From Candidatus Sulfobium sp. (GTDB taxonomy: Bacteria; Nitrospirota; Thermodesulfovibrionia; Thermodesulfovibrionales; UBA6898), in the NCBI GenBank assembly GCA_037380845.1, contig JARRRI010000025.1, forward strand, positions 1-33,795: a DNA stretch of 33,795 nucleotides, written 5' to 3'. Below are positions 180 through 27,228 of this stretch, piece by piece; the stretch's first letter is position 1, and each line of letters starts with the position of its first letter. Below the pieces are notes generated by a model. The model was not told the DNA's origin. It ran no database searches and saw nothing but the letters and a program-made list of their open reading frames with translations. The translations under genes and the position numbers were made by a program.

Positions 180-1616
180 ATGAAAGAACATGATGTTTTC
201 GATGAAATAATAGAGTTGGGTAAGAAGCGGGGAACGCTCACGTATGATGAAATAAATGACGCCCTGCCGTCCGAGTTTTTCTCGCCCGACGAGCTTGAGG
301 ACCGTCTGGAACTGCTGAAGGACCTGGGGATCAAGGTCGTAGACAGCGAGGAACAGGACATCTTTGAATCCGAGGCCCTTGAAGAGGAGGAGCCCGAAGA
401 GGAGGAGAGGTCAGAAGACTTGGTCCAGGCATATTTTCATTCGATGGGGAATATCACCATTCTCACCAGGGACGCCGAGACCGAGCTTGCAAAGAGACTC
501 GAAGAAGGCAGAAGTATCGTAAAGGAAATCGTCACATCTCTGCCTTTATACAACAGGATCGAGAGCAGCCTGACGAATACCGGCGACGTGGAATGGACTG
601 AAGAGGAGGAGAAGGAAAAAGCGGACGAAGCCCTCCATACGTCTCTGACAATCCTCGACAACACAATGCGGAAAGTGGAGGAGGCGGACAGGAAGATCGG
701 GAGGCATGGCTCTCTGAAGAACCTGAAACGGACCGTTTCCGAAAAGAAGAAGAAGAACATCAACCCGGCAAAGCTCCAGGCGCTGGCCAAGGAGGTTGGT
801 GCCGTCTATAAACAGGCTGAAGCCGAAACGGGGATCAAGATAGACGAGCTGAAGGCCGGGTGGGAGAGGATTCTGAGGGCCCGGGCATTGTATGAAGAGT
901 CCAAGAACGAGCTGACAACACGGAATCTCAGGCTGGTAGTGAATATCGCCAAGAACTATATAGGCAGGGGGCTTTCCCTTCTGGACCTTATACAGGAGGG
1001 TAACATAGGACTTATGAAGGCAGTCGACAAGTTCAAATACGAGAAGGGCTTCAAGTTCAGCACATATGCAACCTGGTGGATCAGGCAGGCGATGACGCGG
1101 GCCCTGATAGACCAGACAAAGACAATAAGGGTCCCCGTACACATGATGGAATTTTACAACAGGGTTACCAAGGCGACCCGGGAACTTACCCAGGAGCTGG
1201 GGAGAGAACCCGTGGACGACGAAATAGCAGAAAAGCTTGGCGTTCCCAAGAGGAAGGTGGAAGAGGTCTTCAGGGCCATCCAGGACCCGATTGCATTACA
1301 GACACCGGTGGGCGATGAAGACACCGAGCTTGAAGATTTCATCGGGGACGAGAGCAAGCCTTCCCCTTACGAGGATGCCGAGCAGACGGAAATGTCCGAG
1401 CAGATGATCATGATCTTGAAGACGCTTACCCCCAAGGAAGAGCAGGTTATAAGGATGAGGTTCGGGATAGGTGTTGACAGGGATCACACTCTTGAAGAAG
1501 TGGGGAGGCATCTGGCGATCACAAGAGAAAGGGTGAGGCAGATCGAGGCAAAAGCATTGAGAAAGCTCAAGCACCCTCACAGGATGAAAGCGCTGAAGAA
1601 CCTGATTACCGCCTGA
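180..1616 (+). CDS. rpoD: RNA polymerase sigma-70 factor, RpoD/SigA-like (possibly a non-primary paralogue)
   Basis: Region 1.1 (ELGKKRGTLTYDEIND), region 2 (NLRLVVNIAKNY...DLIQEGNIGLMKAVDKF...FSTYATWWIRQA) and region 4 (TLEEVG...TRERVRQIEAKALRKLKHP). RBS GAGGA upstream. Confidence 0.9.
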   Translation: MKEHDVFDEIIELGKKRGTLTYDEINDALPSEFFSPDELEDRLELLKDLGIKVVDSEEQDIFESEALEEEEPEEEERSEDLVQAYFHSMGNITILTRDAETELAKRLEEGRSIVKEIVTSLPLYNRIESSLTNTGDVEWTEEEEKEKADEALHTSLTILDNTMRKVEEADRKIGRHGSLKNLKRTVSEKKKKNINPAKLQALAKEVGAVYKQAEAETGIKIDELKAGWERILRARALYEESKNELTTRNLRLVVNIAKNYIGRGLSLLDLIQEGNIGLMKAVDKFKYEKGFKFSTYATWWIRQAMTRALIDQTKTIRVPVHMMEFYNRVTKATRELTQELGREPVDDEIAEKLGVPKRKVEEVFRAIQDPIALQTPVGDEDTELEDFIGDESKPSPYEDAEQTEMSEQMIMILKTLTPKEEQVIRMRFGIGVDRDHTLEEVGRHLAITRERVRQIEAKALRKLKHPHRMKALKNLITA

Positions 1617-1634
1617 TACACCGGCACGGTGCCG

Positions 1635-2174
1635 TCAGGATGCCTTCCTGAGCCTTGCAAACCTTGTAAGGAGACCGTCACGTGAGAGTTCGAGAGCGCA
1701 GCCCAGGTCCTCAAACATCGAGACCGTTTCTTTCATGGCTTTTTCTCCGACCTCCAGGGTGGGTTCATAGATAGAGATAAAACCGCCTTTTTTTAATATC
1801 CTGCATATATTGGAGGCGGACGCCTCCCTGTTTCTGACTTCATGGAAGCTGTAATACAGGATGCAGACGTCGGCGATGCTTTCTTCCACCGGCGATAAAG
1901 ATATGTCGCCTTTTACAATCTCTACCTTACCGGGTTGCGGCGGCACCCTTTTTTTAAGCTTTCTTACCATTCCTTCCTGGAGTTCGACTGCGATTATCTT
2001 TCGGGCGCGCCGGACGAGGACCTCTGTCAGGAACCCGTTACCGGCACCTGCTTCGAGCACGACGGAGTCGGTTGTGACGCCTGATTCGTCGAGGATCCTC
2101 CCGCGGTCCGTAAGGAGTTTCCTCACCGGGTTATACAGGATAAATGAAAGCCATGAGGGGCAGACAAATGACAT
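1635..2174 (-). CDS. Class I SAM-dependent methyltransferase
   Basis: Motif I VLEAGAGNG, acidic post-I AVE, GD motif and LKKGG. Start placed at ATG 2174 behind an AAAGGAG RBS. Confidence 0.85.
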   Translation of the reverse strand: MSFVCPSWLSFILYNPVRKLLTDRGRILDESGVTTDSVVLEAGAGNGFLTEVLVRRARKIIAVELQEGMVRKLKKRVPPQPGKVEIVKGDISLSPVEESIADVCILYYSFHEVRNREASASNICRILKKGGFISIYEPTLEVGEKAMKETVSMFEDLGCALELSRDGLLTRFARLRKAS

Positions 2175-2347
2175 CAGTTCACTCCTTTCGGTTGAAGTTT
2201 GTCCTGTCATGTTATCACAATGAAGGGACCTTTTTTCCGGAGGCGGAGATCACTTGATTTTGGCAACTTTTTGTGAGCTAATAGTAGGAAGTGAATTAAT
2301 TATGGCGGACAAAGGGTTTCTTGTGAAACGGGAGCGGCTATAAACGG

Positions 2348-3088
2348 ATGGAACGGTTTCTGGATTTCGCTATCCTCCCCCAGCCTGACGAGACCACGTG
2401 CGGACCATCGTGCCTGCACGCCGTCTACAGATATTACGGGTATGATATATCTCTGGACCAGGTGATACGGGAAGTGAGAAACCTGGAGGGAGGCGGCACA
2501 CTGGACGTATTCCTCGCCATACATGCCCTCAGAAGGGGCTTTTCCGCCGTGATATATACCTACAACCTGGCTGTCTTCGATCCCACCTGGTTTAAACAGG
2601 GCGGGGCAGACCTGAAAGAACGGCTGCTTGCACAGATGAGGGCGAAGGACGAACCGAAGCTGCACGTAGCCACAAGAGGATACCTTGAATTCCTCGATCT
2701 TGGCGGTCAAATCCGTTTTGAGGACCTTACCACTGCCATTATCAGAAAATACCTCAAGAGGTCGGTCCCTATCATAACGGGCCTCAGTTCCACTTACCTT
2801 TACCGCAGCGCCAGGGAGGTGGGGGAAAAGGGGGAAGAAGATGACATAAGGGGCGAGCCCGCGGGCCACTTTGTCGTGCTCTGTGGTTATAACCGGGAAG
2901 AACGCACCGTCCTGGTTGCCGACCCCTTTTCCCCGAACCCGTTTTCGGAGAGCCACACTTATCTGGTAAATATCGACCGCGTCTTGTGTTCCATTCTCCT
3001 CGGGGTCCTCACATACGACGCAAACTTCCTGATTGTCAGGCCTAACAGGCCCTCCGACGCCCATGCCGATCCTGATCGTCGTAAATGA
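2348..3088 (+). CDS. C39-like (papain-fold) cysteine peptidase
   Basis: QPDETTCGPSCL (oxyanion Q and catalytic C), GHFVVL (H), VADP (D). Stand-alone, with no ABC-transporter domain. Confidence 0.8.
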   Translation: MERFLDFAILPQPDETTCGPSCLHAVYRYYGYDISLDQVIREVRNLEGGGTLDVFLAIHALRRGFSAVIYTYNLAVFDPTWFKQGGADLKERLLAQMRAKDEPKLHVATRGYLEFLDLGGQIRFEDLTTAIIRKYLKRSVPIITGLSSTYLYRSAREVGEKGEEDDIRGEPAGHFVVLCGYNREERTVLVADPFSPNPFSESHTYLVNIDRVLCSILLGVLTYDANFLIVRPNRPSDAHADPDRRK

Positions 3089-4538
3089 CCCGAAAGACCT
3101 TCCGCTTCACTTCGAGGGAGTGGAAGTCGTTTCGGCAAAGACCTATCTGACCGGTTCCGGTTATGCATTGATGCGCGGAGCCAAGGTCTTCAACCTCTGC
3201 ACGTCATACCGTTACCAGAGCACCGGATACTATGTTTCACTTCTCGCGGCCGCCAGGGGGCACAAACCCGTCCCTAACATAACGACCATACAGGACCTGA
3301 AGTCGCAGAAGCTTGTCCGCCTCGCCTCGGAAGACCTTGATGAACTCATAGGAAGGAGCCTTTCCCCGCTGCAGTCGAGTGAATTTATTCTGAGCATTTA
3401 TTTCGGCAGGAACCTCGCAAAGCGTTACGACCGTCTTAGCCTCCGTCTTTTTAAGCTCTTCCAGGCGCCGTTTCTGCGGGCTCTTTTCATGTTCAACGGG
3501 AAGAGCCGCAGGTGGTATCTCCACAGCGTGACGCCCATGGCGGCAAACGAGATCCCGGAAGACCACAGAGATTTCGCTGTCAGGACGGCCCAGGAATTTT
3601 TTGCCAGAAGGCCGCGTGTTTCCCGAAAGGCCGCATACAGATATGACCTTGCCGTCCTCCATAATCCTCTGGAGAAGGAGCCTCCTTCGGACCCGCGGGC
3701 ATTGAAAAAATTCGTGAAGGCAGCGGAGTCCCTGGGGATGGCGGCGGAGATGATCGAGAAGGACGATATCGGTCGGCTTCCCGAGTTCGACGCCCTCTTT
3801 ATTCGGGAGACCACGAGCGTGACTCATCACACCTACCGCTTTGCCCGCCGGGCGCTGGCCGAAGGACTGGTCGTTGTGGACGATCCCGAGTCGATCCTCA
3901 AATGCACCAACAAAGTGTTTCTCGCCGAGGTCCTGGGGAGGCACAGGATTTTGACCCCGAAGACTCTGATCGTTCATCGCGAAAACAGCGGTGCCGTATG
4001 CCGTACCCTCGGGTTGCCCTGTGTCCTGAAAAAGCCGGACAGTTCTTTTTCCCAGGGCGTCGTGAAGGTCGGGAGCGACAAGGAACTGATGGAAAACGTC
4101 CATAAGATGCTTGAACGGTCGGACCTCATCATTGCGCAGGAACTTATCGAGACGGAATATGACTGGCGTGTCGGGATCTTCAACCGCCAGCCGTTATTTG
4201 TCTGCAAGTACTTCATGGCCAGACATCACTGGCAGATTATAAAAAGAGATGCCGCGGGAAAAAAGACCGGGGAAGGGGACTGGGATACTCTGTCTGTCGA
4301 GTATGCTCCTACGCGCCTTATCAAGACTGCACTGAGAGCCGCGAACCTTATAGGAGACGGCTTTTACGGAGTGGACATCAAGCAGGTGGGAGACAGGTTT
4401 TATGTTATCGAGGTAAACGACAACCCGAGCATCGAGAGCGGCGTCGAAGACCGGGTGCTCAAAGACGAGCTCTACCTGAGGATTATGAGGGTGATTCTCC
4501 GCAGGATCGAGCAAATAAAGGAGGGGTACCTTCCGTGA
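3063..4538 (+). CDS. RimK-like ATP-grasp ligase with N-terminal RLAN-type extension
   Basis: ATP-grasp motifs CTNK, PCVLKKPDSSFSQGVVKV, QE, DWR and YGVDIK...VIEVNDNP. N-terminal NLCTSYRYQSTGYYVSLLAAARGH is typical of RLAN. ATG 3063 overlaps the end of the upstream gene. Confidence 0.88.
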   Translation: MPILIVVNDPKDLPLHFEGVEVVSAKTYLTGSGYALMRGAKVFNLCTSYRYQSTGYYVSLLAAARGHKPVPNITTIQDLKSQKLVRLASEDLDELIGRSLSPLQSSEFILSIYFGRNLAKRYDRLSLRLFKLFQAPFLRALFMFNGKSRRWYLHSVTPMAANEIPEDHRDFAVRTAQEFFARRPRVSRKAAYRYDLAVLHNPLEKEPPSDPRALKKFVKAAESLGMAAEMIEKDDIGRLPEFDALFIRETTSVTHHTYRFARRALAEGLVVVDDPESILKCTNKVFLAEVLGRHRILTPKTLIVHRENSGAVCRTLGLPCVLKKPDSSFSQGVVKVGSDKELMENVHKMLERSDLIIAQELIETEYDWRVGIFNRQPLFVCKYFMARHHWQIIKRDAAGKKTGEGDWDTLSVEYAPTRLIKTALRAANLIGDGFYGVDIKQVGDRFYVIEVNDNPSIESGVEDRVLKDELYLRIMRVILRRIEQIKEGYLP

Positions 4539-5773
4539 GGAGAAAGCCCGGGCTTTTTGAAGGCTATGGTGTGGAGCTCGAATACATGATCGTCGACAGA
4601 TCTACACTTGATGTGCTTCCCGTCTCAGACGAGGTACTTCGTGCTGCAGCGGGAAGATATACCACAGAGTTCGAAGAGGGCCCTGTTGTATGGTCCAACG
4701 AGCTGGTGCTACACGTCATGGAGATCAAGAACAATGGACCTGCAGGGTCCCTCGACGGGCTGGCAGAAAAATTTCAAAAGGGTATTCTGCGCATTAACGG
4801 GATACTCGAAGGGTTCGGCGGGAAGCTCATGCCCTCGGGCATGCATCCATGGATGGACCCTTCGACGGAGACAAGACTCTGGCCCCGCAGGAACAGGAAT
4901 ATCTACGAGACTTACGACCGCATCTTCGACTGCCGCAACCATGGCTGGTCGAACATCCAGAGCGTACACCTCAACCTCCCTTTCAGGGGGGACGAACAAT
5001 TCGGGAGGCTTCACGCCGCGGTCCGTCTTCTCATCCCGCTGATGCCGGCTGTCGCTGCAAGTTCTCCAATAGTAGGGGGAAGAATATCGGGGCTGATGGA
5101 CTCACGCCTGTACTATTACGGAGAGAACCAGTTTAAGGTCCCTTCTATTACCGGAAAGGTAATACCGGAGGCGGTCTTCACGAGGGAGGAATACGAAAGC
5201 AAAATCCTGAGGAAAATTTACAGGGGGATAGCTAAATACGACACCGAAGGTGTCCTAGGTTACGAGTGGGTGAACTCGCGTGGGGCCATCCCCAGGTTCG
5301 ACAGGAGTACCATAGAGATCAGGACGCTGGACGTCCAGGAAAGTCCTCTTGCCGATCTGGCACTTGCGGTCAGTATCTCGGCCGTAACCAAGGCGCTGAT
5401 TGACGAACTCTGGTGTGGTTACGGAGAGCAGAAGGCGTGGGGTATCGACCCTCTCCGGACCGTCCTTGAGGAGACGATGCGTTACGGGGAAAAAGCCGTT
5501 ATCGGAAACCCTTCATATCTGCGGGCTTTCGGTTTAAAGGCGGAACGGGCCACCGCACTGACTCTATGGAAGCACCTGCGAAAGGAGGTGCTCATCCACG
5601 ACCCTTCCTTCGGGGATGAGGCGGCCGGCGCAATGGACGTCATCCTGGGAAAAGGACCTCTTTCCAGACGGATACTTACGGCTGCGGGCAGAAAGCCCGG
5701 GCCGGCGAAAATCAGGACTGTATATGAAAGGCTCTGTGACTGTCTGATGAAAGGAGAGATGTTTCCTGGGTAG
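4535..5773 (+). CDS. Glutamate-cysteine ligase family 2 (GCS2, carboxylate-amine ligase)
   Basis: GVELEY, ELVLHVMEIK, GMHP, SVHLN, ASSP and IEIRTLD motifs. GTGA overlap with the upstream stop. Confidence 0.85.
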   Translation: MRRKPGLFEGYGVELEYMIVDRSTLDVLPVSDEVLRAAAGRYTTEFEEGPVVWSNELVLHVMEIKNNGPAGSLDGLAEKFQKGILRINGILEGFGGKLMPSGMHPWMDPSTETRLWPRRNRNIYETYDRIFDCRNHGWSNIQSVHLNLPFRGDEQFGRLHAAVRLLIPLMPAVAASSPIVGGRISGLMDSRLYYYGENQFKVPSITGKVIPEAVFTREEYESKILRKIYRGIAKYDTEGVLGYEWVNSRGAIPRFDRSTIEIRTLDVQESPLADLALAVSISAVTKALIDELWCGYGEQKAWGIDPLRTVLEETMRYGEKAVIGNPSYLRAFGLKAERATALTLWKHLRKEVLIHDPSFGDEAAGAMDVILGKGPLSRRILTAAGRKPGPAKIRTVYERLCDCLMKGEMFPG

Positions 5774-6488
5774 GGGTGTCAGAGTAATTGTCTCCTGCGA
5801 GCACGCCGGAAACGAAGTGCCGGGGCCGTTTCGCCCCCTTTTCAGGGGGTATGGCGGCATGCTTCGGAGTCACCGGGGTTACGACGTCGGTGCAATGGAA
5901 CTGGCCGGCACCGTCGCGAAACGCTTCGGTGCCGTTCCATTTTCGTCGACAGTCACCCGACTTCTCGTGGACGTGAACCGTTCTCCTGACAACCCGGCGC
6001 GTTTTTCAGAGGTATCCCGCGTACTCACGGCTTCTGAAAAGAAGTCCGTCATGAACAACCACTATTGGCCCTGGCGGCAAGAGGTAGAATCGGAGATAGG
6101 TCGTCTCTGCCGGACAGGGAAGAAGGTGCTTCACCTCTCGGTCCATACCTTTACGCCGGTACTGGACGAAAAAGTCCGTTCCGCGGATGCCGGTCTGCTG
6201 TATGATCCTGCAAGAAAGGGGGAGGGCCTCTTCTGCAGGCGGTGGAAACGACGGCTGCAGGACCTGCAACCATCCCTGAACGTGCGTCTTAATTACCCGT
6301 ATGCCGGAAAATCAGACGGTTTCACCACCCATCTCCGCTCCCTCTTTATGGAGAAATTTTATCTGGGCATCGAAATCGAGGTGAATCAGAAGTACGCGCT
6401 CCGCAGGCCAGGGAGATGGAAAGAGATACAGCGCGCTATTGTTAATTCGCTGGATCTGACCCTTAAGGAATATGAAAGATCCACGTAG
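5766..6488 (+). CDS. N-formylglutamate amidohydrolase family protein
   Basis: VIVSCEHAGN (upstream of the listed ORF start), GYDVGA, RLLVDVNR, HLSVHTF and IEIEVNQ. Start uncertain; CTG 5766 behind AAGGAG is proposed. Confidence 0.8.
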   Translation: MGRGVRVIVSCEHAGNEVPGPFRPLFRGYGGMLRSHRGYDVGAMELAGTVAKRFGAVPFSSTVTRLLVDVNRSPDNPARFSEVSRVLTASEKKSVMNNHYWPWRQEVESEIGRLCRTGKKVLHLSVHTFTPVLDEKVRSADAGLLYDPARKGEGLFCRRWKRRLQDLQPSLNVRLNYPYAGKSDGFTTHLRSLFMEKFYLGIEIEVNQKYALRRPGRWKEIQRAIVNSLDLTLKEYERST

Positions 6489-6608
6489 ATTTGTCCGGAC
6501 ATTCCCTGTCAACCCCTTTGCCTCTTTTTATAGGGGATACAGCGGAATTTGCAGTCAGCCGATATTTTTGGATGGGATCTCAGGCGGCCTGAGACCGGCT
6601 AACCGGGC

Positions 6609-7250
6609 CTACTCGGACCAGCCGTGGGAGCCGATCAGAGGGACGAAGACGCAGGGCGTATGATATTCCTCGGCCAGGCCCTCTTTGGTCTTCCTTATCC
6701 TGAGAAGCTGCTGTGAATGCCTGCTTCCCACGGGTATCACGAGGATGCCACCTTCTTTAAGCTGTTGCAGAAGAGGGCCGGGGATTTCAGGGGCGGCTGC
6801 GGTTATAATTATACGGTCGAAAGGGGCCTGCTCCGGCCATCCGAGGGTACCGTCTCCAGATTTCACATGCACGTTTTCGCAGGAAAGAGAGCGCAGTACG
6901 GAGGCCGCCTTCTCGGCAAGGGAGGGGAACCTCTCGATGGTATAAACCTCGCGGCTTAGTTCAGAAAGGACCGCGGCCTGGTAGCCGGAGCCGGTCCCGA
7001 TCTCCAGGACTTTCTCGGTGCCGCCGAGTTCGAGCAGCTCGGTCATTATGGCGACCATGTAAGGCTGAGAGATAGTCTGGCCGTCGCCGATGGGCAACGC
7101 CATGTCGTCGTAAGCATTGCGTTGAACGAGAGCCTCCACAAAAAGATGTCTCGGTACCCGTGCCATCGCATCCAGGACCCTGCGGTCCTTGATCCCTCTC
7201 GGAATCAGCTGGGTCTTTACCATCTCCTCTCTCAGCGCCTTATCGTCCAT
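6609..7250 (-). CDS. pcm: Protein-L-isoaspartate O-methyltransferase
   Basis: VPRHLFV, GQTISQPYMVA, VLEIGTGSGYQAAVL, APFDRII and FVPLIG. Confidence 0.95.
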   Translation of the reverse strand: MDDKALREEMVKTQLIPRGIKDRRVLDAMARVPRHLFVEALVQRNAYDDMALPIGDGQTISQPYMVAIMTELLELGGTEKVLEIGTGSGYQAAVLSELSREVYTIERFPSLAEKAASVLRSLSCENVHVKSGDGTLGWPEQAPFDRIIITAAAPEIPGPLLQQLKEGGILVIPVGSRHSQQLLRIRKTKEGLAEEYHTPCVFVPLIGSHGWSE

Positions 7251-7296
7251 TAATAAATACCGCAGCGAACTTCTGTTTGGCGAATCCCATGCCTTT

Positions 7297-8688
7297 TCAT
7301 GACAAACGGTCCAGTATCTCTCTTGCGGCCACCACGCCCGAGGCGGAAGCCTGTATGAGGCCGCGGCTTACCCCGGCACCGTCACCTACTGCAAACATGT
7401 CCTTCACCTCGGTCTCCAGGTGGTCGGAAAGTTTGAGCTGCCTTGAATAAAATTTGACCTCGACGCCGTATAGCAGCGTATGGCGTGAGCTCACCCCCGG
7501 GGCGATGCTGTCAAGGGCCTCCAGCATTTCCATTATATCACAGAGATATCTGTACGGAAGCACGAAACTGAGATCCCCCGGCGTCGCGTCCCTCAGAGTG
7601 GGCCGTACTACGCCCTTCGAAATCCGTTCCGGCGTAGACCGCCTTCCCGCTGCGAGATCGCCCAGTCTTTGGACTATTACACCGTCCCCCAGGAAGTTGG
7701 CAAGCTGAGCTATATATCTGCCATAGGAAATGGGTTCGTCGAACGGCTCCGTGAAATGGGTGCTGACGAGGAGGGCAAAGTTGGTATTGTTCGTTTTCCG
7801 CTTCGCGTAGCTGTGGCCGTTTACCGTCCATATACCCTTCAGGTATTCCTTCACAACTTCACCGTAAGGGTTTACGCAAAAAGTCCTGACCTTGTCGTCG
7901 AACCTCTTTGAATAGAAGAGAAGCTTCGGTTCGTAGGTCGCCTTCGTGAGGGGCTCGAAGACCGGCGCGGGCAGTTCTATCCTCACGCCGATATCGACCG
8001 GGTTTTTAAGAAGGGTGAGGTCCAGCCGCCTGGATTCCTCCTCCAGCCACCTCGATCCCTCCCTTCCGGGCGCGAGGACCAGGTGCCCCGACAGGAACTC
8101 CGTCCCGTCTTTCAGCCTGACCCCCTTGCACCTGCCGTTTTCTACTATGACCGCCTCGGCCTCGGTCTGAAAGAGGACGTCTACCTTCCTGTTGATGTCT
8201 TCCTTTATCCTTTTAAGGAGCGCGCCACACCTGTCAGTACCGATATGCCTTATCCTGGAAGGGACGAGAACGAGATTGTTCTTTGCCGCCAGCCTTTCCA
8301 GTTCATGGACCTCCTCCGGCCTGCTGCCGAACAAATTTTTCGGTGCTCCGTAATGGACATAGATGTCATCGACATAGCGTATCAGCGTTTTTACATTGTC
8401 CTTGTCCATATAACGCGAGAGGAACCCGCCGACCTCGGGGGACAGGCTGAGTTTACCGTCGCTGAAGGCCCCCGCCCCGCCCCATCCGCTCAAAAGGTCG
8501 CACTCCCGGCACCTGGTGCACGAAATATCCCTGATGATGAGGGGACAGGCCCTCCGGTCGATGTCCTTGCCCTTTTCAATCATAAGGACCTTCGGTCTCT
8601 TGCGCGATTTCAGCAGTTCCAGGGCGGTAAATATGCCGGCCGGACCAGCCCCTATGATTATCACATCATATTTCTTTGTCCGCTTCAT
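7297..8688 (-). CDS. Uncharacterised FAD/NAD(P)-dependent oxidoreductase (COG2509-like)
   Basis: DVIIIGAGPAG, GWGGAGAFSDGKL, RTFCVNPYG, VNGHS and GDGAGVSRGL. Start at ATG 8688 (MKRTKK). Confidence 0.85.
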   Translation of the reverse strand: MKRTKKYDVIIIGAGPAGIFTALELLKSRKRPKVLMIEKGKDIDRRACPLIIRDISCTRCRECDLLSGWGGAGAFSDGKLSLSPEVGGFLSRYMDKDNVKTLIRYVDDIYVHYGAPKNLFGSRPEEVHELERLAAKNNLVLVPSRIRHIGTDRCGALLKRIKEDINRKVDVLFQTEAEAVIVENGRCKGVRLKDGTEFLSGHLVLAPGREGSRWLEEESRRLDLTLLKNPVDIGVRIELPAPVFEPLTKATYEPKLLFYSKRFDDKVRTFCVNPYGEVVKEYLKGIWTVNGHSYAKRKTNNTNFALLVSTHFTEPFDEPISYGRYIAQLANFLGDGVIVQRLGDLAAGRRSTPERISKGVVRPTLRDATPGDLSFVLPYRYLCDIMEMLEALDSIAPGVSSRHTLLYGVEVKFYSRQLKLSDHLETEVKDMFAVGDGAGVSRGLIQASASGVVAAREILDRLS

Positions 8689-9445
8689 CCCATATGTCCC
8701 GAAGGGCCCATTTCTCCCTGAAAAAGGAAAGGGCCTCGTAATTTGTAAGATCCAGATGTATAGGCGTGATGGATATGCAGTTTCTCTGGACGGCTTCCAT
8801 ATCCATGTCTTCACCGCGCTCCCAGTATGGAGTGCCTCCACCTATCCAGTAATGCTTCTCACCCCAGGGGTTGTAGGTCTCCTGTATGGAGTTGTCATAG
8901 ACCCTTTTGCCCTGTTTGGTAAACCTCACCCCCCGGATTTTTTCAGCTGCCATATTGGGGATGTTGACGTTCAGAAGAGTGTCGTAGGGGAGGGAGTGTT
9001 GCAGTACAAAAGCGGCGAGGCGGAGAGCGAAATGTGATGCGGTATCGTAGTGGTAATGTTTGCCGAAAATAAGCGAAAATGCTATGGAGGGTATCCCGAA
9101 CATGGTACCCTCGACGGCTGCGGAAACAGTACCGGAATAAGTGATATCGTCACCCAGGTTCGCCCCCCTGTTGATGCCCGAGACGATAAGTGAAGGCCTT
9201 TCCGGGAGGAGCTTGTTTACCCCAAGCGTAACGCAGTCGGTCGGGGTGCCGTTTACGCTGAAGACCCGTTCCCTGATCTCCTCTGCCCTCAAGGGTCTGT
9301 GAAGTGTGAGGGAATGTCCTGCAGCGCTCCTTTCACGGTCGGGAGCGACCACGAAGGCATCGCCCAGCTTCTCCACTGCTTTATGGAGAGCGGAAATTCC
9401 GGGGGAGTGTACGCCGTCGTCATTTGTCACGAGAATAACCGGCAT
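8666..9445 (-). CDS. surE: 5'/3'-nucleotidase SurE
   Basis: ILVTNDDG, APDRERSAAGHSLT, GTPTDCV and SGINRGANLGDDITYSGTV. Confidence 0.95.
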   Translation of the reverse strand: MPVILVTNDDGVHSPGISALHKAVEKLGDAFVVAPDRERSAAGHSLTLHRPLRAEEIRERVFSVNGTPTDCVTLGVNKLLPERPSLIVSGINRGANLGDDITYSGTVSAAVEGTMFGIPSIAFSLIFGKHYHYDTASHFALRLAAFVLQHSLPYDTLLNVNIPNMAAEKIRGVRFTKQGKRVYDNSIQETYNPWGEKHYWIGGGTPYWERGEDMDMEAVQRNCISITPIHLDLTNYEALSFFREKWALRDIWDEADKEI

Positions 9446-9453
9446 CACTGCAT

Positions 9454-9462
9454 ATTCTATCA
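9454..9462 (-). promoter_or_regulatory. Extended -10 promoter of surE (TGaTAGAAT), 8 nt from the ATG
   Basis: Minus strand reads tgaTAGAATatgcagtgATG. Confidence 0.5.
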
Positions 9463-9675
9463 GAAACTCCCCGCCGCCGCATCCCGAAACAAGGTCCGGC
9501 GAATTACCACAGAAAAAGATAGCTTTCACGCAAAATAACCAAAGAAGCGGCGTAAACCCCTTATTATGAGAGATCGCCGGCGATAAAAACCTGGAATTTT
9601 CTTCCATGAGAATCTCTCCTCCGGCGAGTGGCCTGCATTTATTCACGGAAAACCCTTCTTTTCAGGATAAAAACC

Positions 9676-25466: not shown

Positions 25467-26156
25467 ATGGCGGAACCTTTTGACTGCATGAGAAAGAGCG
25501 TACCTCTTATCGGAATGACATGCAGGGGTCTCGGGAACCTCCCGGCCCATCCTGACCTTTACAGGAGGGCCGTAGAGAGGGCGGGGGGCTCTTCGATATT
25601 TATACCGCCCGGGACGGACGTGAAAGATATCTCCCTGTCGTGCGATGGCTTTATCATCCCCGGCGGACGGGACCCGGCCCCCGCTTCATATAACGAAGGA
25701 AGTCTATTCTCCTTGGAGACTGAAGACCCGCAGCGAACGGGTTTTGAATTGATGCTTCTGCATGAGATAATAAGATTACGGAAACCGGTACTCGGTATAT
25801 GTTACGGAATGCAGCTTATTAATATATTTTTCGGAGGCAGCCTATACCAGGACATCCGCGGGCAGATACCGGGAAGCCTGGAACATGAAAGGAAGATGCA
25901 CCCCGTAATAATCAGCGGAAACCCTTTTATGAAAAGCGGAGAATTTCCTGTGAACAGCCGTCATCATCAGGCTGTCAAAGAGACGGGTAGGGGGGTCGTG
26001 GTCTTCGCTTATGCCCGGGACGGAATAACAGAGGCTTTTTACCTCGAAGAATACCGTTTTCTTGTAGGCGTGCAGTGGCATCCTGAGAGGAACGGGTCTG
26101 CCCTGAGCTCAGCTCTGTTCGGCAAATTCATTGAGGCATGCCGTGACCACCAATAG
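25467..26156 (+). CDS. Peptidase C26 / gamma-glutamyl-GABA hydrolase family (class I GATase fold)
   Basis: PGGRD, PVLGICYGMQ (Cys), NSRHHQ and GVQWHPE (His-Glu). Confidence 0.88.
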   Translation: MAEPFDCMRKSVPLIGMTCRGLGNLPAHPDLYRRAVERAGGSSIFIPPGTDVKDISLSCDGFIIPGGRDPAPASYNEGSLFSLETEDPQRTGFELMLLHEIIRLRKPVLGICYGMQLINIFFGGSLYQDIRGQIPGSLEHERKMHPVIISGNPFMKSGEFPVNSRHHQAVKETGRGVVVFAYARDGITEAFYLEEYRFLVGVQWHPERNGSALSSALFGKFIEACRDHQ

Positions 26157-27228
26157 GTTCTATTTCCTCATGCTCCTCTTTCTCCTTGCCGTCCTGGGAT
26201 ACCTCACGTTTGAGATAATGCGGCCTTTTTTGAATGCGATAGGGTGGTCCGTTGTCCTCTCAATAGTGTTTTATCCGGTCTACGCGGCCATTTCCAGGTA
26301 CGTGAGGTTAAAGTCCGTGGCTTCCGTCATAACGGTCTTCCTCATAGTAATAATAATCATAGGACCCATTTCATATCTGACTTTTATGCTGGTCAACGAA
26401 ATTCAGGTAATTGCCCAGAAGATAAACCAGAACGGTCTTGAATCCCTCCGGGACCTCATCAATCAGGTGAAGTCGTTTTCCCTGTTTGATGCCATCCGTT
26501 CCTATACGGGCATCCAGGATATCATGTCCGAGCAGGCTCTTACCGAGAGTGTGAGAAAGCTGGGCAACAGCCTTCTTCAATTTTTTTCGCTCCGGATAAC
26601 CAACATAATCTCATCCGCAGTTGATTTTATCTTCATGGTATTTGCGGTCTTCTTCCTCCTGAGGGACGGACCGGGCTTCCTGTCTAAAGCGCGGGACTAC
26701 ATGCCCTTCAGTGAGACCCAGAAAAACGTCCTGGCCTCCCAGATAAATGATACGATAATCTCAACGGTGTATGGAGGCGTCGTCATAGCGATTATTCAGG
26801 GTGTACTCGGAGGTTTTGCCTTCTATGTAATAGGTATCGAATCCCCGGTCCTCTGGGGGGTTGCCATGTCAATAATGTCCTTCGTTCCTCTGCTGGGTAC
26901 TTTCGCCGTCTGGGGGCCGACATCGGTATATCTGGTAGTGAAAGGAAGCTTTATGGAAGGGGTTGGCCTGTTCCTGTTCGGGGTACTTGTTATAAGCATG
27001 GTGGACAACATATTGAAGCCCCTGATAATCGGGAGCCGCACGAAGATGCACACTCTCATCATCCTTTTCAGCGTGCTCGGGGGTATCAAGCTCTTCGGGA
27101 TGATAGGTCTGATCATGGGACCCCTTATAACGGCCCTGTTCGTATCGGTATTCGAGATCAGCAGGAACATAGAGACCGGGGGAGGGGACAACCCTCCATC
27201 GAGTGAAACGACGTCCCCGGGCGAGTAA
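26143..27228 (+). CDS. AI-2E family transporter
   Basis: Multiple TM segments, FFLLRDG, SFVPLLG, DNILKPLIIG and GLIMGP. Confidence 0.9.
   Translation: MTTNRFYFLMLLFLLAVLGYLTFEIMRPFLNAIGWSVVLSIVFYPVYAAISRYVRLKSVASVITVFLIVIIIIGPISYLTFMLVNEIQVIAQKINQNGLESLRDLINQVKSFSLFDAIRSYTGIQDIMSEQALTESVRKLGNSLLQFFSLRITNIISSAVDFIFMVFAVFFLLRDGPGFLSKARDYMPFSETQKNVLASQINDTIISTVYGGVVIAIIQGVLGGFAFYVIGIESPVLWGVAMSIMSFVPLLGTFAVWGPTSVYLVVKGSFMEGVGLFLFGVLVISMVDNILKPLIIGSRTKMHTLIILFSVLGGIKLFGMIGLIMGPLITALFVSVFEISRNIETGGGDNPPSSETTSPGE

Follow-up and report, generated by a model that had tools for sequence, protein, structure and literature searches.

A compact cassette of a C39-like enzyme, an RLAN–RimK-type ligase, a GCS2 ligase and an optional FGase-fold enzyme in Candidatus Sulfobium: a candidate carrier-free route to a small peptide

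What might be made by four tightly packed genes that encode two ligases between two enzymes of hydrolase-like fold? We examined this question for a cassette in a 33,795-nucleotide (nt) stretch of DNA, here termed the window, which is contig 25 (JARRRI010000025.1) of the Candidatus Sulfobium sp. assembly GCA_037380845.1 (3.18 Mb in 104 contigs, completeness estimated at 100%) and whose nearest relatives carry the label Thermodesulfovibrionales. The genes, designated g1 to g4 in order of transcription, encode a C39-like papain-fold enzyme, a RimK-type ATP-grasp ligase with an N-terminal RLAN domain, a GCS2-family carboxylate-amine ligase and a metallo-amidohydrolase of the FGase fold. Our preferred reading, which we hold tentatively and with a probability of about 0.45, is that the cassette specifies a cytoplasmic, carrier-free pathway in which two ligases build a small N-acyl or gamma-glutamyl peptide and further enzymes trim it. 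That the peptide is made independently of the ribosome, and with this the substrates, the order of the steps and the direction of the g1 reaction, is what we infer from the genes and their relatives.

Iyer, Abhiman, Burroughs and Aravind reportedly described, in Mol Biosyst in 2009, RLAN/RimK-type neighbourhoods with a COOH-NH2 ligase, GNAT proteins and peptidases, for which peptide-metabolite or tagging systems were predicted and no product was named. Several of the features reported here (the three-gene core with its optional FGase, the exchange of GNAT for GCS2, the fold of RLAN, the start of g4 and the spread through Nitrospirota and Desulfobacterota) may already be described in that work. 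A search of the full-text literature, a collection that mostly leaves subscription journals outside, returned no product assigned to this gene set and no paper for the names PF14401 or RLAN.

A three-gene core with an accessory fourth gene

The initial annotation of this DNA had described four plus-strand genes with overlapping junctions, and its coordinates were confirmed (Table 1): start and stop codons overlap at all three junctions. The ratio of non-synonymous to synonymous substitution rates (dN/dS) against same-genus loci is 0.05–0.16 for all four genes, indicating purifying selection. Among GTDB representatives, with one genome for each species, a pattern scan confirmed 446 g2 relatives, and the best 80 of these loci, in which g2 is 58–85% identical, were analysed by tblastn with the window proteins. 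Gene order was scored where the locus had room, defined as at least 800 nt upstream for g1 or downstream for g4. With this definition, g1 precedes g2 in 76/76 loci and g4 follows g3 in 38 of 65; g3 follows g2 in all 80. Whole-genome searches of five genomes that lack g4, drawn from 27 such loci and of unstated completeness, found no PF05013 gene in any of the five. Because g4 is adjacent in only these 38 loci and PF05013 was absent from all five genomes, we regard g1–g2–g3 as the core and the FGase as an accessory. Clustering of open reading frames (ORFs) of at least 70 amino acids (aa) across the 80 loci identified no conserved fifth gene, the next family being present in only 10. It follows that no carrier protein accompanies the cassette and, since nothing beyond the four genes is a conserved neighbour, that there is no conserved exporter.

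The cassette occurs in Nitrospirota, Desulfobulbaceae, Desulfuromonadales, Deferrimicrobiaceae and other hosts, and is rare and patchy where we sampled it. Of 41 genomes sampled across the order of the window, its own among them, 7 contain g2 (4/4 in the same genus, 2/21 in other genera of the family and 1/16 in other families); for the phylum, 4 of 301 sampled genomes have an RLAN score above the cut-off. A quick maximum-likelihood tree, rooted with a deeper variant and labelled with taxa from submitters' titles, places 10 of the 11 Nitrospirota copies in a single group (support 94, not starred), nested within rows of which most are Thermodesulfobacteriota or bear a delta-proteobacterial label. 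Together with 58–69% identity across phyla, this topology fits a presumed horizontal spread of the cassette.

Fusions also link the components. One locus carries g2 and g3 as a single RLAN-RimK-GCS2 gene of 905 aa (L062:5992-8709). In three of the 80 loci (L024:8689-10080, L029:8871-10130 and L031:5478-6731) the FGase shares one polypeptide with a YfcD-like NUDIX domain (165.8 bits, cut-off 152). The initial annotation had treated the four genes as one unit, and the wide co-occurrence, the translational overlaps and the natural g2–g3 and FGase–NUDIX fusions all support this view; judged by gene content and order, the cassette appears to be one functional unit. Three further loci, all without g4 (L021, L022 and L025), have a homologous NUDIX gene some 5 kb upstream of the cassette. 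The NUDIX link could hint at a nucleotide-linked substrate; as a component of the system, NUDIX was set aside because three fusions and three nearby genes are too few loci.

Relatives of g2 outside the cassette show which parts are exchangeable. The RLAN profile matched 925 cluster representatives (E ≤1e-3) among 1.84 billion, most of the full-length ones being about 490 aa. Eleven representatives, chosen mostly because their RLAN domain was internal, were scanned against Pfam, and five of these carry an N-terminal GNAT domain. The GNAT-RLAN-RimK proteins include P0172 and the full-length P0201 and P0259 (about 650 aa). In five metagenome loci (L093–L097) the fused GNAT-RLAN-RimK gene stands alone, with g1, g3 and g4 not nearby, and a sixth (L098) holds the full four-gene cassette. 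In a deeper RLAN-ATP-grasp branch, 37% identical to g2, the upstream gene is a GNAT-DUF3335 fusion and GCS2 is absent. The C39-like DUF3335 domain is homologous to residues 12–193 of g1, including the insertion described below (26% identity, E 4e-6). On these sequence comparisons RLAN-RimK appears to be the constant element and a C39-like enzyme its usual partner, with the third function filled by an N-acylating enzyme, either GCS2 or GNAT. As both are N-acylating, the constant theme would be to N-acylate and then to ligate. A lone GNAT-RLAN-RimK protein is most simply read as the maker of a small N-acyl dipeptide, and the exchange of GNAT for GCS2 favours a small-molecule over a protein substrate. 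The GNAT domain of the fused variants has RimI as its best model, below the cut-off (58.5 against 86.4). We considered whether these fusions are the N-acetylglutaminylglutamine synthetase Ngg and rejected the assignment: model TIGR03103 scored 32.9 against 569 on P0259, covering the GNAT part only, and at E ≤1e-5 did not match P0201, P0172 or P0122. The parallel with N-acetyl-dipeptide synthesis is therefore an analogy only. One metagenome locus (L099:4962-9029) has g2–g3 without an upstream g1, the sole such case seen, followed by a KAS III-like gene; the 360-aa minus-strand ORF upstream has no Pfam match.

Properties of the four proteins

Profile searches with Peptidase_C39_2, RLAN, RimK, GCS2 and FGase all exceeded the Pfam cut-offs, which bears out the family assignments of the initial annotation. 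Its statement that the catalytic motifs are intact also held, as the candidate catalytic residues of all four proteins are invariant in alignments of relatives; we take the catalytic roles of these residues to be those usual for each family.

The second gene, g2, matches RLAN (PF14401) with 150.6 bits against a cut-off of 25 (3.4e-44; 154 bits in the genome scan) and RimK with 29.7 bits against 21, and ATP-grasp_3 and Dala_Dala_lig_C are also weak matches. Among NCBIfam models LysX (58 bits) and the RimK family TIGR00768 (55.2 against 143.4) came highest, all below cut-off, and the model of the ribosomal protein S6 ligase, NF007764, gave 16.8 bits against 331. Residues K284, K323, Q359, R369, D438, E450 and N452 are invariant in 53 sequences. 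On this alignment the C-terminal nucleotide and magnesium site appears intact, and the protein is placed by its matches in the ATP-grasp superfamily. Like RimK, which adds L-glutamate to S6, g2 belongs to the RimK clade of ATP-grasp enzymes and retains the conserved nucleotide and magnesium residues. Unlike g2, RimK has no RLAN domain, and its usual partners RimA and RimB are absent from the cassette.

Pfam describes RLAN only as an N-terminal domain. An AlphaFold2 model of residues 1–190 (mean predicted local distance difference test, pLDDT, 91.2) was compared with known structures by a wide VIA search, in which ArgX ranked highest (Z 11.2; 175 residues aligned at a root-mean-square deviation (rmsd) of 4.5), followed by LysX/ArgX (11.0), RimK (10.4) and glutathione synthetase (9.1), with matches that span whole chains. 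The top 40 VIA rows are all ATP-grasp-fold enzymes, in our reading of the PDB titles, and Foldseek agrees. Sequence comparison gave no such signal: hhalign of RLAN against the ATP-grasp half of g2 returned a probability of 8% and the RLAN profile matched no PDB sequence, so that the ATP-grasp likeness is a likeness of predicted structure. The ESM Atlas gave no usable match for this part. Invariant residues of the domain, for example Y51, G55-Y56-Y57, R65, H67, S111, Y113 and N117, are not the usual nucleotide ligands. RLAN is probably a shrunken, non-catalytic ATP-grasp-like module, which would make g2 a tandem of a degenerate and an active ATP-grasp copy.

The assignment of g3 to GCS2 (PF04107) is strong (99.9 bits against a cut-off of 21, 2.3e-28), and E14, E16, E56, H60, E63, R249 and R263 are invariant in 51 sequences, the four glutamates forming an acidic cluster. 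More specific models fall far short: YbdK (TIGR02050), the best equivalog match, gave 48.3 bits against 176.4, the other models at most 44 bits against cut-offs of 249–427, and EgtA 18.8 against 370.8 on the fused g2–g3 homologue.

The first gene, g1, matches Peptidase_C39_2 (46.3 bits against 24, 8e-12) and Peptidase_C39 (3e-6). Q12, C18, H174 and D192 are invariant in an alignment of 53 sequences and correspond to the Cys and His/Asp motifs in the peptidase domain of PCAT1, and residues 68–172 form an insertion of about 100 aa. The AlphaFold2 model (pLDDT 78.5) has the C39-type papain fold and is closest in VIA to PCAT1 (Z 18.0, rmsd 2.5, 140 residues aligned), with further matches to the double-glycine protease 6mpz (Z 17.8), the pseudomurein endoisopeptidase PeiR (Z 17.0) and phytochelatin synthase in its glutathione acyl-enzyme form (Z 16.0 over 160 residues). 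The g1 family has 7379 matches at E ≤1e-5 in a metagenome protein collection. As the cysteine is residue 18, g1 has no signal peptide, and we regard it as a cytoplasmic stand-alone enzyme. No exporter domain was found by Pfam in the 246-aa protein, no conserved transporter neighbours it in the 80 loci, and no precursor peptide with a double-glycine leader was found near it; the overlapping junctions leave no room for one. Two tiny ORFs upstream of g1 (18 and 13 codons) were considered as precursors and rejected, as they are not conserved in same-genus loci, the window's own genus being the range within which ORFs of fewer than 70 aa were compared. The Pfam scan, the clustering of 80 loci and the same-genus upstream comparison thus agree with the earlier description of a C39-like enzyme without a transporter domain or a conserved precursor ORF. 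Prediction of a complex between g1 and g2 (score 0.01, mark 0.32) speaks neither for nor against contact between them.

For g4, FGase (PF05013) scored 54.6 bits in the truncated form and 67.9 for the full frame (cut-off 28.9), with C11, E12, H13, H127, E203 and E205 invariant in 34 sequences and the metal motif thereby conserved. In a profile search of the PDB, the uncharacterized Atu2144 (2odf) was a far better match than the true FGase 2q7s (4e-38 against 3.5e-5), and the HutG model TIGR02017 gave 16.9 bits against 278.75.

The start of this gene required separate attention. Its frame opens at 5751, behind the stops TGA TGA at 5745–5750, and ends at 6488, with no ATG, GTG or TTG ahead of GTG 5817. 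A start at 5817 would delete the SCEHAGN metal motif, encoded from 5790, and automatic annotation therefore probably truncates g4. In relatives SCEH(A/G)GN is invariant and most have an ATG 4–8 nt before the g3 stop. CTG 5766 aligns with this ATG, lies 9 nt behind GGAG (5753–5756) and overlaps the g3 stop at 5771–5773. Within the genus, one genome has an ATG four codons ahead of the SCEH motif, and two others lack a nearby ATG and have a GTG or ATG about 20–27 codons upstream, where the frame is closed in the window. Contigs from the runs of two further studies match the g3–g4 junction without difference, so that the junction is not an assembly slip, and the dN/dS of g4 is 0.15–0.16 against same-genus loci. 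Given the confirmed junction, the purifying selection and the alignment with the ATG of relatives, g4 probably starts at CTG 5766. The start near 5766 in the initial annotation was thus well placed, at the cost of a non-standard start codon. A programmed frameshift from g3 into g4 was set aside, as in relatives the aligned position is occupied by an ATG of its own.

A candidate pathway and competing explanations

In the pathway that we favour, g3 would use ATP to couple the amine of an amino acid to a carboxylate, most plausibly the gamma-carboxyl group of glutamate, yielding an N-acylated (gamma-glutamyl) amino acid, and g2 would use ATP to add a second amino acid, most plausibly L-glutamate, to the free alpha-carboxylate of this intermediate, with RLAN in a non-catalytic docking or oligomerization role. 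The third enzyme, g1, would form an acyl-enzyme with the product through Cys18, and might then either hydrolyse it, as an amidase that sets the level of the product, or transfer it to another amine, as a transpeptidase. Where g4 is present, it may remove a terminal amide of the N-acyl-glutamate type.

N-acylation followed by extension at the carboxylate is the order in the synthesis of glutathione, N-acetylaspartylglutamate (NAAG) and N-acetylglutaminylglutamine, and the proposed logic of the cassette matches theirs by analogy. The glutathione pathway is a parallel in kind, with GshA of the GCS fold and then the ATP-grasp ligase GshB producing gamma-Glu-X-Y, which a papain-fold enzyme then takes up as an acyl-enzyme. 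The cassette has the same kinds of enzyme and departs from this pathway in that it falls far below all curated GshA and GshB cut-offs and that g2 carries the extra RLAN domain; against phytochelatin synthase, g1 is nearer to C39 domains (Z 18.0 against 16.0). Glutathionylspermidine synthetase/amidase (Gss) pairs an ATP-grasp-type synthetase with a papain-like amidase and Ngg pairs one with a GNAT domain, and both act on a small peptide; the cassette resembles them by general description only, as an ATP-grasp ligase with a papain-like or GNAT partner. Precedent for the separate steps comes from two biosynthetic systems. In the accessible part of the report on thioglutine and actinothioneine, the RimK-Pfam and YbdK-like ligases TgiB and TgiB-II produce free gamma-glutamyl or other dipeptides, as suggested here for the cassette, and the Tgi clusters are defined by the sulfoxide synthase NHISS, which the cassette lacks, and appear without a C39-like or FGase partner (PMC13674229). 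In the work on closthioamide, non-ribosomal peptides are assembled by ATP-grasp ligases together with papain-fold enzymes of the C39/DUF3335/BtrH-like kind (PMC7183216).

Several observations weigh against this small-peptide pathway. The best-studied RimK modifies a protein C-terminus, and both the structures nearest to RLAN (ArgX, LysX and RimK) and the top NCBIfam matches of the ligase domain (LysX and rimK_fam) belong to enzymes that bind protein C-termini, those of LysW and S6. The conservation of g2 is unusually high, as would befit a conserved macromolecule as substrate, peptides and not small amides are the usual targets of C39 peptidases, the GNAT of the variants is nearest to RimI, a ribosomal-protein acetyltransferase (below cut-off), and, as the GNAT-RLAN-RimK proteins are not Ngg, the N-acetyl-dipeptide parallel is weakened.

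These observations are the strength of the principal alternative, reversible protein tagging, in which g2 would add glutamate or another residue to a protein C-terminus or side-chain carboxylate, g3 would form a second, isopeptide-type link and g1 and g4 would remove or trim the tags. Membership of the ligase domain in the RimK/LysX clade, the resemblance of RLAN to enzymes that dock protein C-termini, the cross-phylum conservation of g2, the full peptide-cleaving catalytic set of g1 and the RimI-like GNAT all speak for tagging, and we consider it a doubtful but serious competitor. It is opposed by the lack of a candidate substrate gene in or beside the cassette in the 80 loci, by the small substrates with which GCS2 enzymes are exclusively known, and by S6-ligase and LysX equivalog scores far under cut-off. 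A two-ended protein modifier is also difficult to see in a lone GNAT-RLAN-RimK gene, and a modification with a housekeeping role should be more widespread than the 4/301 and 7/41 genomes recorded above. The initial annotation had favoured a write/erase system; a symmetrical one does not accord with an FGase that is adjacent in 38 of 65 loci and without a PF05013 substitute in five of five genomes that lack g4. By contrast, g1 is obligatory (76/76), and its nearest characterized counterparts among the partners of ATP-grasp ligases, CtaG of closthioamide and BtrH of butirosin, are transacylases and not erasers (PMC7183216). It is unlikely that the cassette makes and turns over a homopolymer or an oligomer for storage or metal binding, whether poly-alpha- or poly-gamma-glutamate or phytochelatin-like (gamma-Glu-X)n chains. 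Such a system would need iterative ligases, of which there is no sequence sign, with g1 transferring chains or depolymerizing them; neither an exporter nor a capsule-type membrane partner is present, and the variants with GNAT point to a product that is capped and not polymeric. In its favour are the match of the g1 fold to phytochelatin synthase over 160 residues, the FGase fold shared with the poly-gamma-glutamate hydrolase PghP, a host without a glutathione synthetase domain and, in the accessible text of one study, the formation of poly-alpha-glutamate by RimK in vitro (PMC10375531). A related extension of the favoured pathway, to which we attach an equally low likelihood, would have the cassette produce a glutathione-like gamma-glutamyl peptide in strict anaerobes of the sulfur and metal cycles that lack glutathione synthetase, with g1 not a protease but a phytochelatin-synthase-like transpeptidase that hands on the gamma-glutamyl-X unit and so builds or remodels oligomers, and RLAN holding the product or a partner enzyme.

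Thiotemplated assembly in the style of closthioamide or butirosin, with the ATP-grasp enzyme loading and extending amino acids on a carrier and g1 moving the chain as a transacylase, shares with the cassette the pairing of an ATP-grasp ligase with a papain-fold enzyme (CtaD/CtaG and BtrJ/BtrH). In the available part of that report the pairing with C39/DUF3335/BtrH-like enzymes was reconstituted for CtaD/CtaG and is known for BtrJ/BtrH, with acyl transfer by a Cys-His-Asp set (PMC7183216), and Foldseek matches g1 to the amide-forming CtaG (E 4e-3), among others. The same text differs from the cassette in describing systems that are templated on a peptidyl carrier protein (PCP) and include a pyridoxal phosphate (PLP) decarboxylase; its description of closthioamide names no GCS2 or FGase, and its survey places a PCP near 95% of CtaD homologues (PMC7183216). 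No PCP or acyl carrier protein (ACP) was found by Pfam in the four cassette genes, six window neighbours or selected fusion proteins of relatives, and the general Pfam scan of the cassette and its neighbours contained no PLP decarboxylase or phosphopantetheinyl transferase. With no conserved fifth gene in the 80 clustered loci and a g2 that is RimK/LysX-like by NCBIfam, a thiotemplated system seems very unlikely. Least credible of all is that the genes are ordinary adjacent metabolism, with g3 making gamma-glutamylcysteine, g4 acting as HutG in histidine catabolism and no substrate in common. The initial annotation had named this case as one that would overturn it, and the case fails: Pfam family names are all that speak for it, and it is contradicted by the HutG score (16.9 against 278.75), the GshA and YbdK scores (at most 48 bits against 176–427), the same gene order with overlaps in at least 76 loci and the g2–g3 fusion of L062. 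The genome, estimated as 100% complete, lacks a urocanase, a GSH-S_ATP domain and any FGase besides g4. None of the four proteins matched a family among the PADLOC anti-phage models at E ≤0.01.

The cassette is compact, strongly conserved and apparently horizontally mobile, and its chemistry is still to be assigned. With the product identified, anaerobe physiology would gain a new small peptide or protein tag and RLAN a function, and the role of a free-standing C39-like enzyme without exporter or leader would become clear. With three genes the core lends itself to direct reconstitution, and its cultured hosts include Desulfobulbus alkaliphilus DSM 24258 and Desulfurivibrio (loci L054, L066 and L080). 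Even if the product proves to be a minor metabolite, annotation would be corrected on three points: HutG is the wrong name for g4, as GshA is for g3, and start-codon rules make g4 too short. We regard the cassette as a clean target for biochemistry and not as a new principle.

Coordinates, upstream region and neighbouring genes

Table 1. Positions of the cassette, its domains and its flanking features in the window, with the variant fusions found in other loci
Feature	Position	Strand	Basis or remark
Methyltransferase gene	1635-2210	-	Divergent neighbour, upstream of cassette
Promoter-like block upstream of g1	2254-2284	+	Conservation across L003-L006
Cassette g1-g4	2348-6488	+	Four tightly packed genes
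g1, C39-like papain-fold enzyme, 246 aa	2348-3088	+	Pfam Peptidase_C39_2, Peptidase_C39
g2, RLAN + RimK-type ATP-grasp ligase	3063-4538	+	Pfam
g2 RLAN domain, residues 1-190	3063-3632	+	Pfam RLAN
g2 RimK/LysX-type ATP-grasp domain, residues 191-491	3633-4538	+	Pfam RimK, ATP-grasp_3, Dala_Dala_lig_C
g3, GCS2 carboxylate-amine ligase, 412 aa	4535-5773	+	Pfam GCS2
g4, FGase-fold metallo-amidohydrolase, 240 aa if the start is CTG 5766	5766-6488	+	Pfam FGase; start probable
pcm	6609-7250	-	Convergent neighbour, downstream of cassette
GNAT-DUF3335 fusions	L105:1267-2394, L106:211-1338, L107:1440-2624; partial in L101, L108		Directly upstream of RLAN-ATP-grasp gene

The start of g2 was placed at ATG 3063, 26 nt inside g1, rather than at the second in-frame candidate, TTG 3033 upstream, because relatives align from residue 1. 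The GTG start of g3 overlaps the g2 stop within GTGA.

Upstream of g1, the block at 2254–2284 consists of TTGATT (2254–2259), a 17-nt spacer that is followed by GCTAAT (2277–2282), and a TG at 2274–2275. It is kept in the same-genus loci L003–L005 and in L006, from another genus, and the flanking bases diverge. A scan for consensus promoters and terminators found no plus-strand site upstream of g1 and a site total no higher than in shuffled sequence; since it did not list the block, we word its promoter role as putative. A permissive Rfam scan of 1500–7400 returned no match, and thus no riboswitch clue.

Downstream, the stationary-phase pair surE/pcm (6609–9646, minus strand) is split by a gene for a 514-aa FAD-dependent protein (Pyr_redox_2/FAD-depend_C). 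The listed surE ORF (8666–9646) overlaps this gene and its SurE domain begins at residue 71, so the true start is probably further downstream. About 19 kb from the cassette, a Peptidase_C26 gene (gamma-glutamyl hydrolase or class I amidotransferase-like; region 25467–27228) overlaps the start of an AI-2E family transporter gene. An RpoD-type sigma factor of 478 aa is encoded at 180–1616; its regions 1.1, 1.2, 2, 3 and 4 are all present, and it scores 473 against the full-length RpoD equivalog cut-off of 555, and so falls below it.

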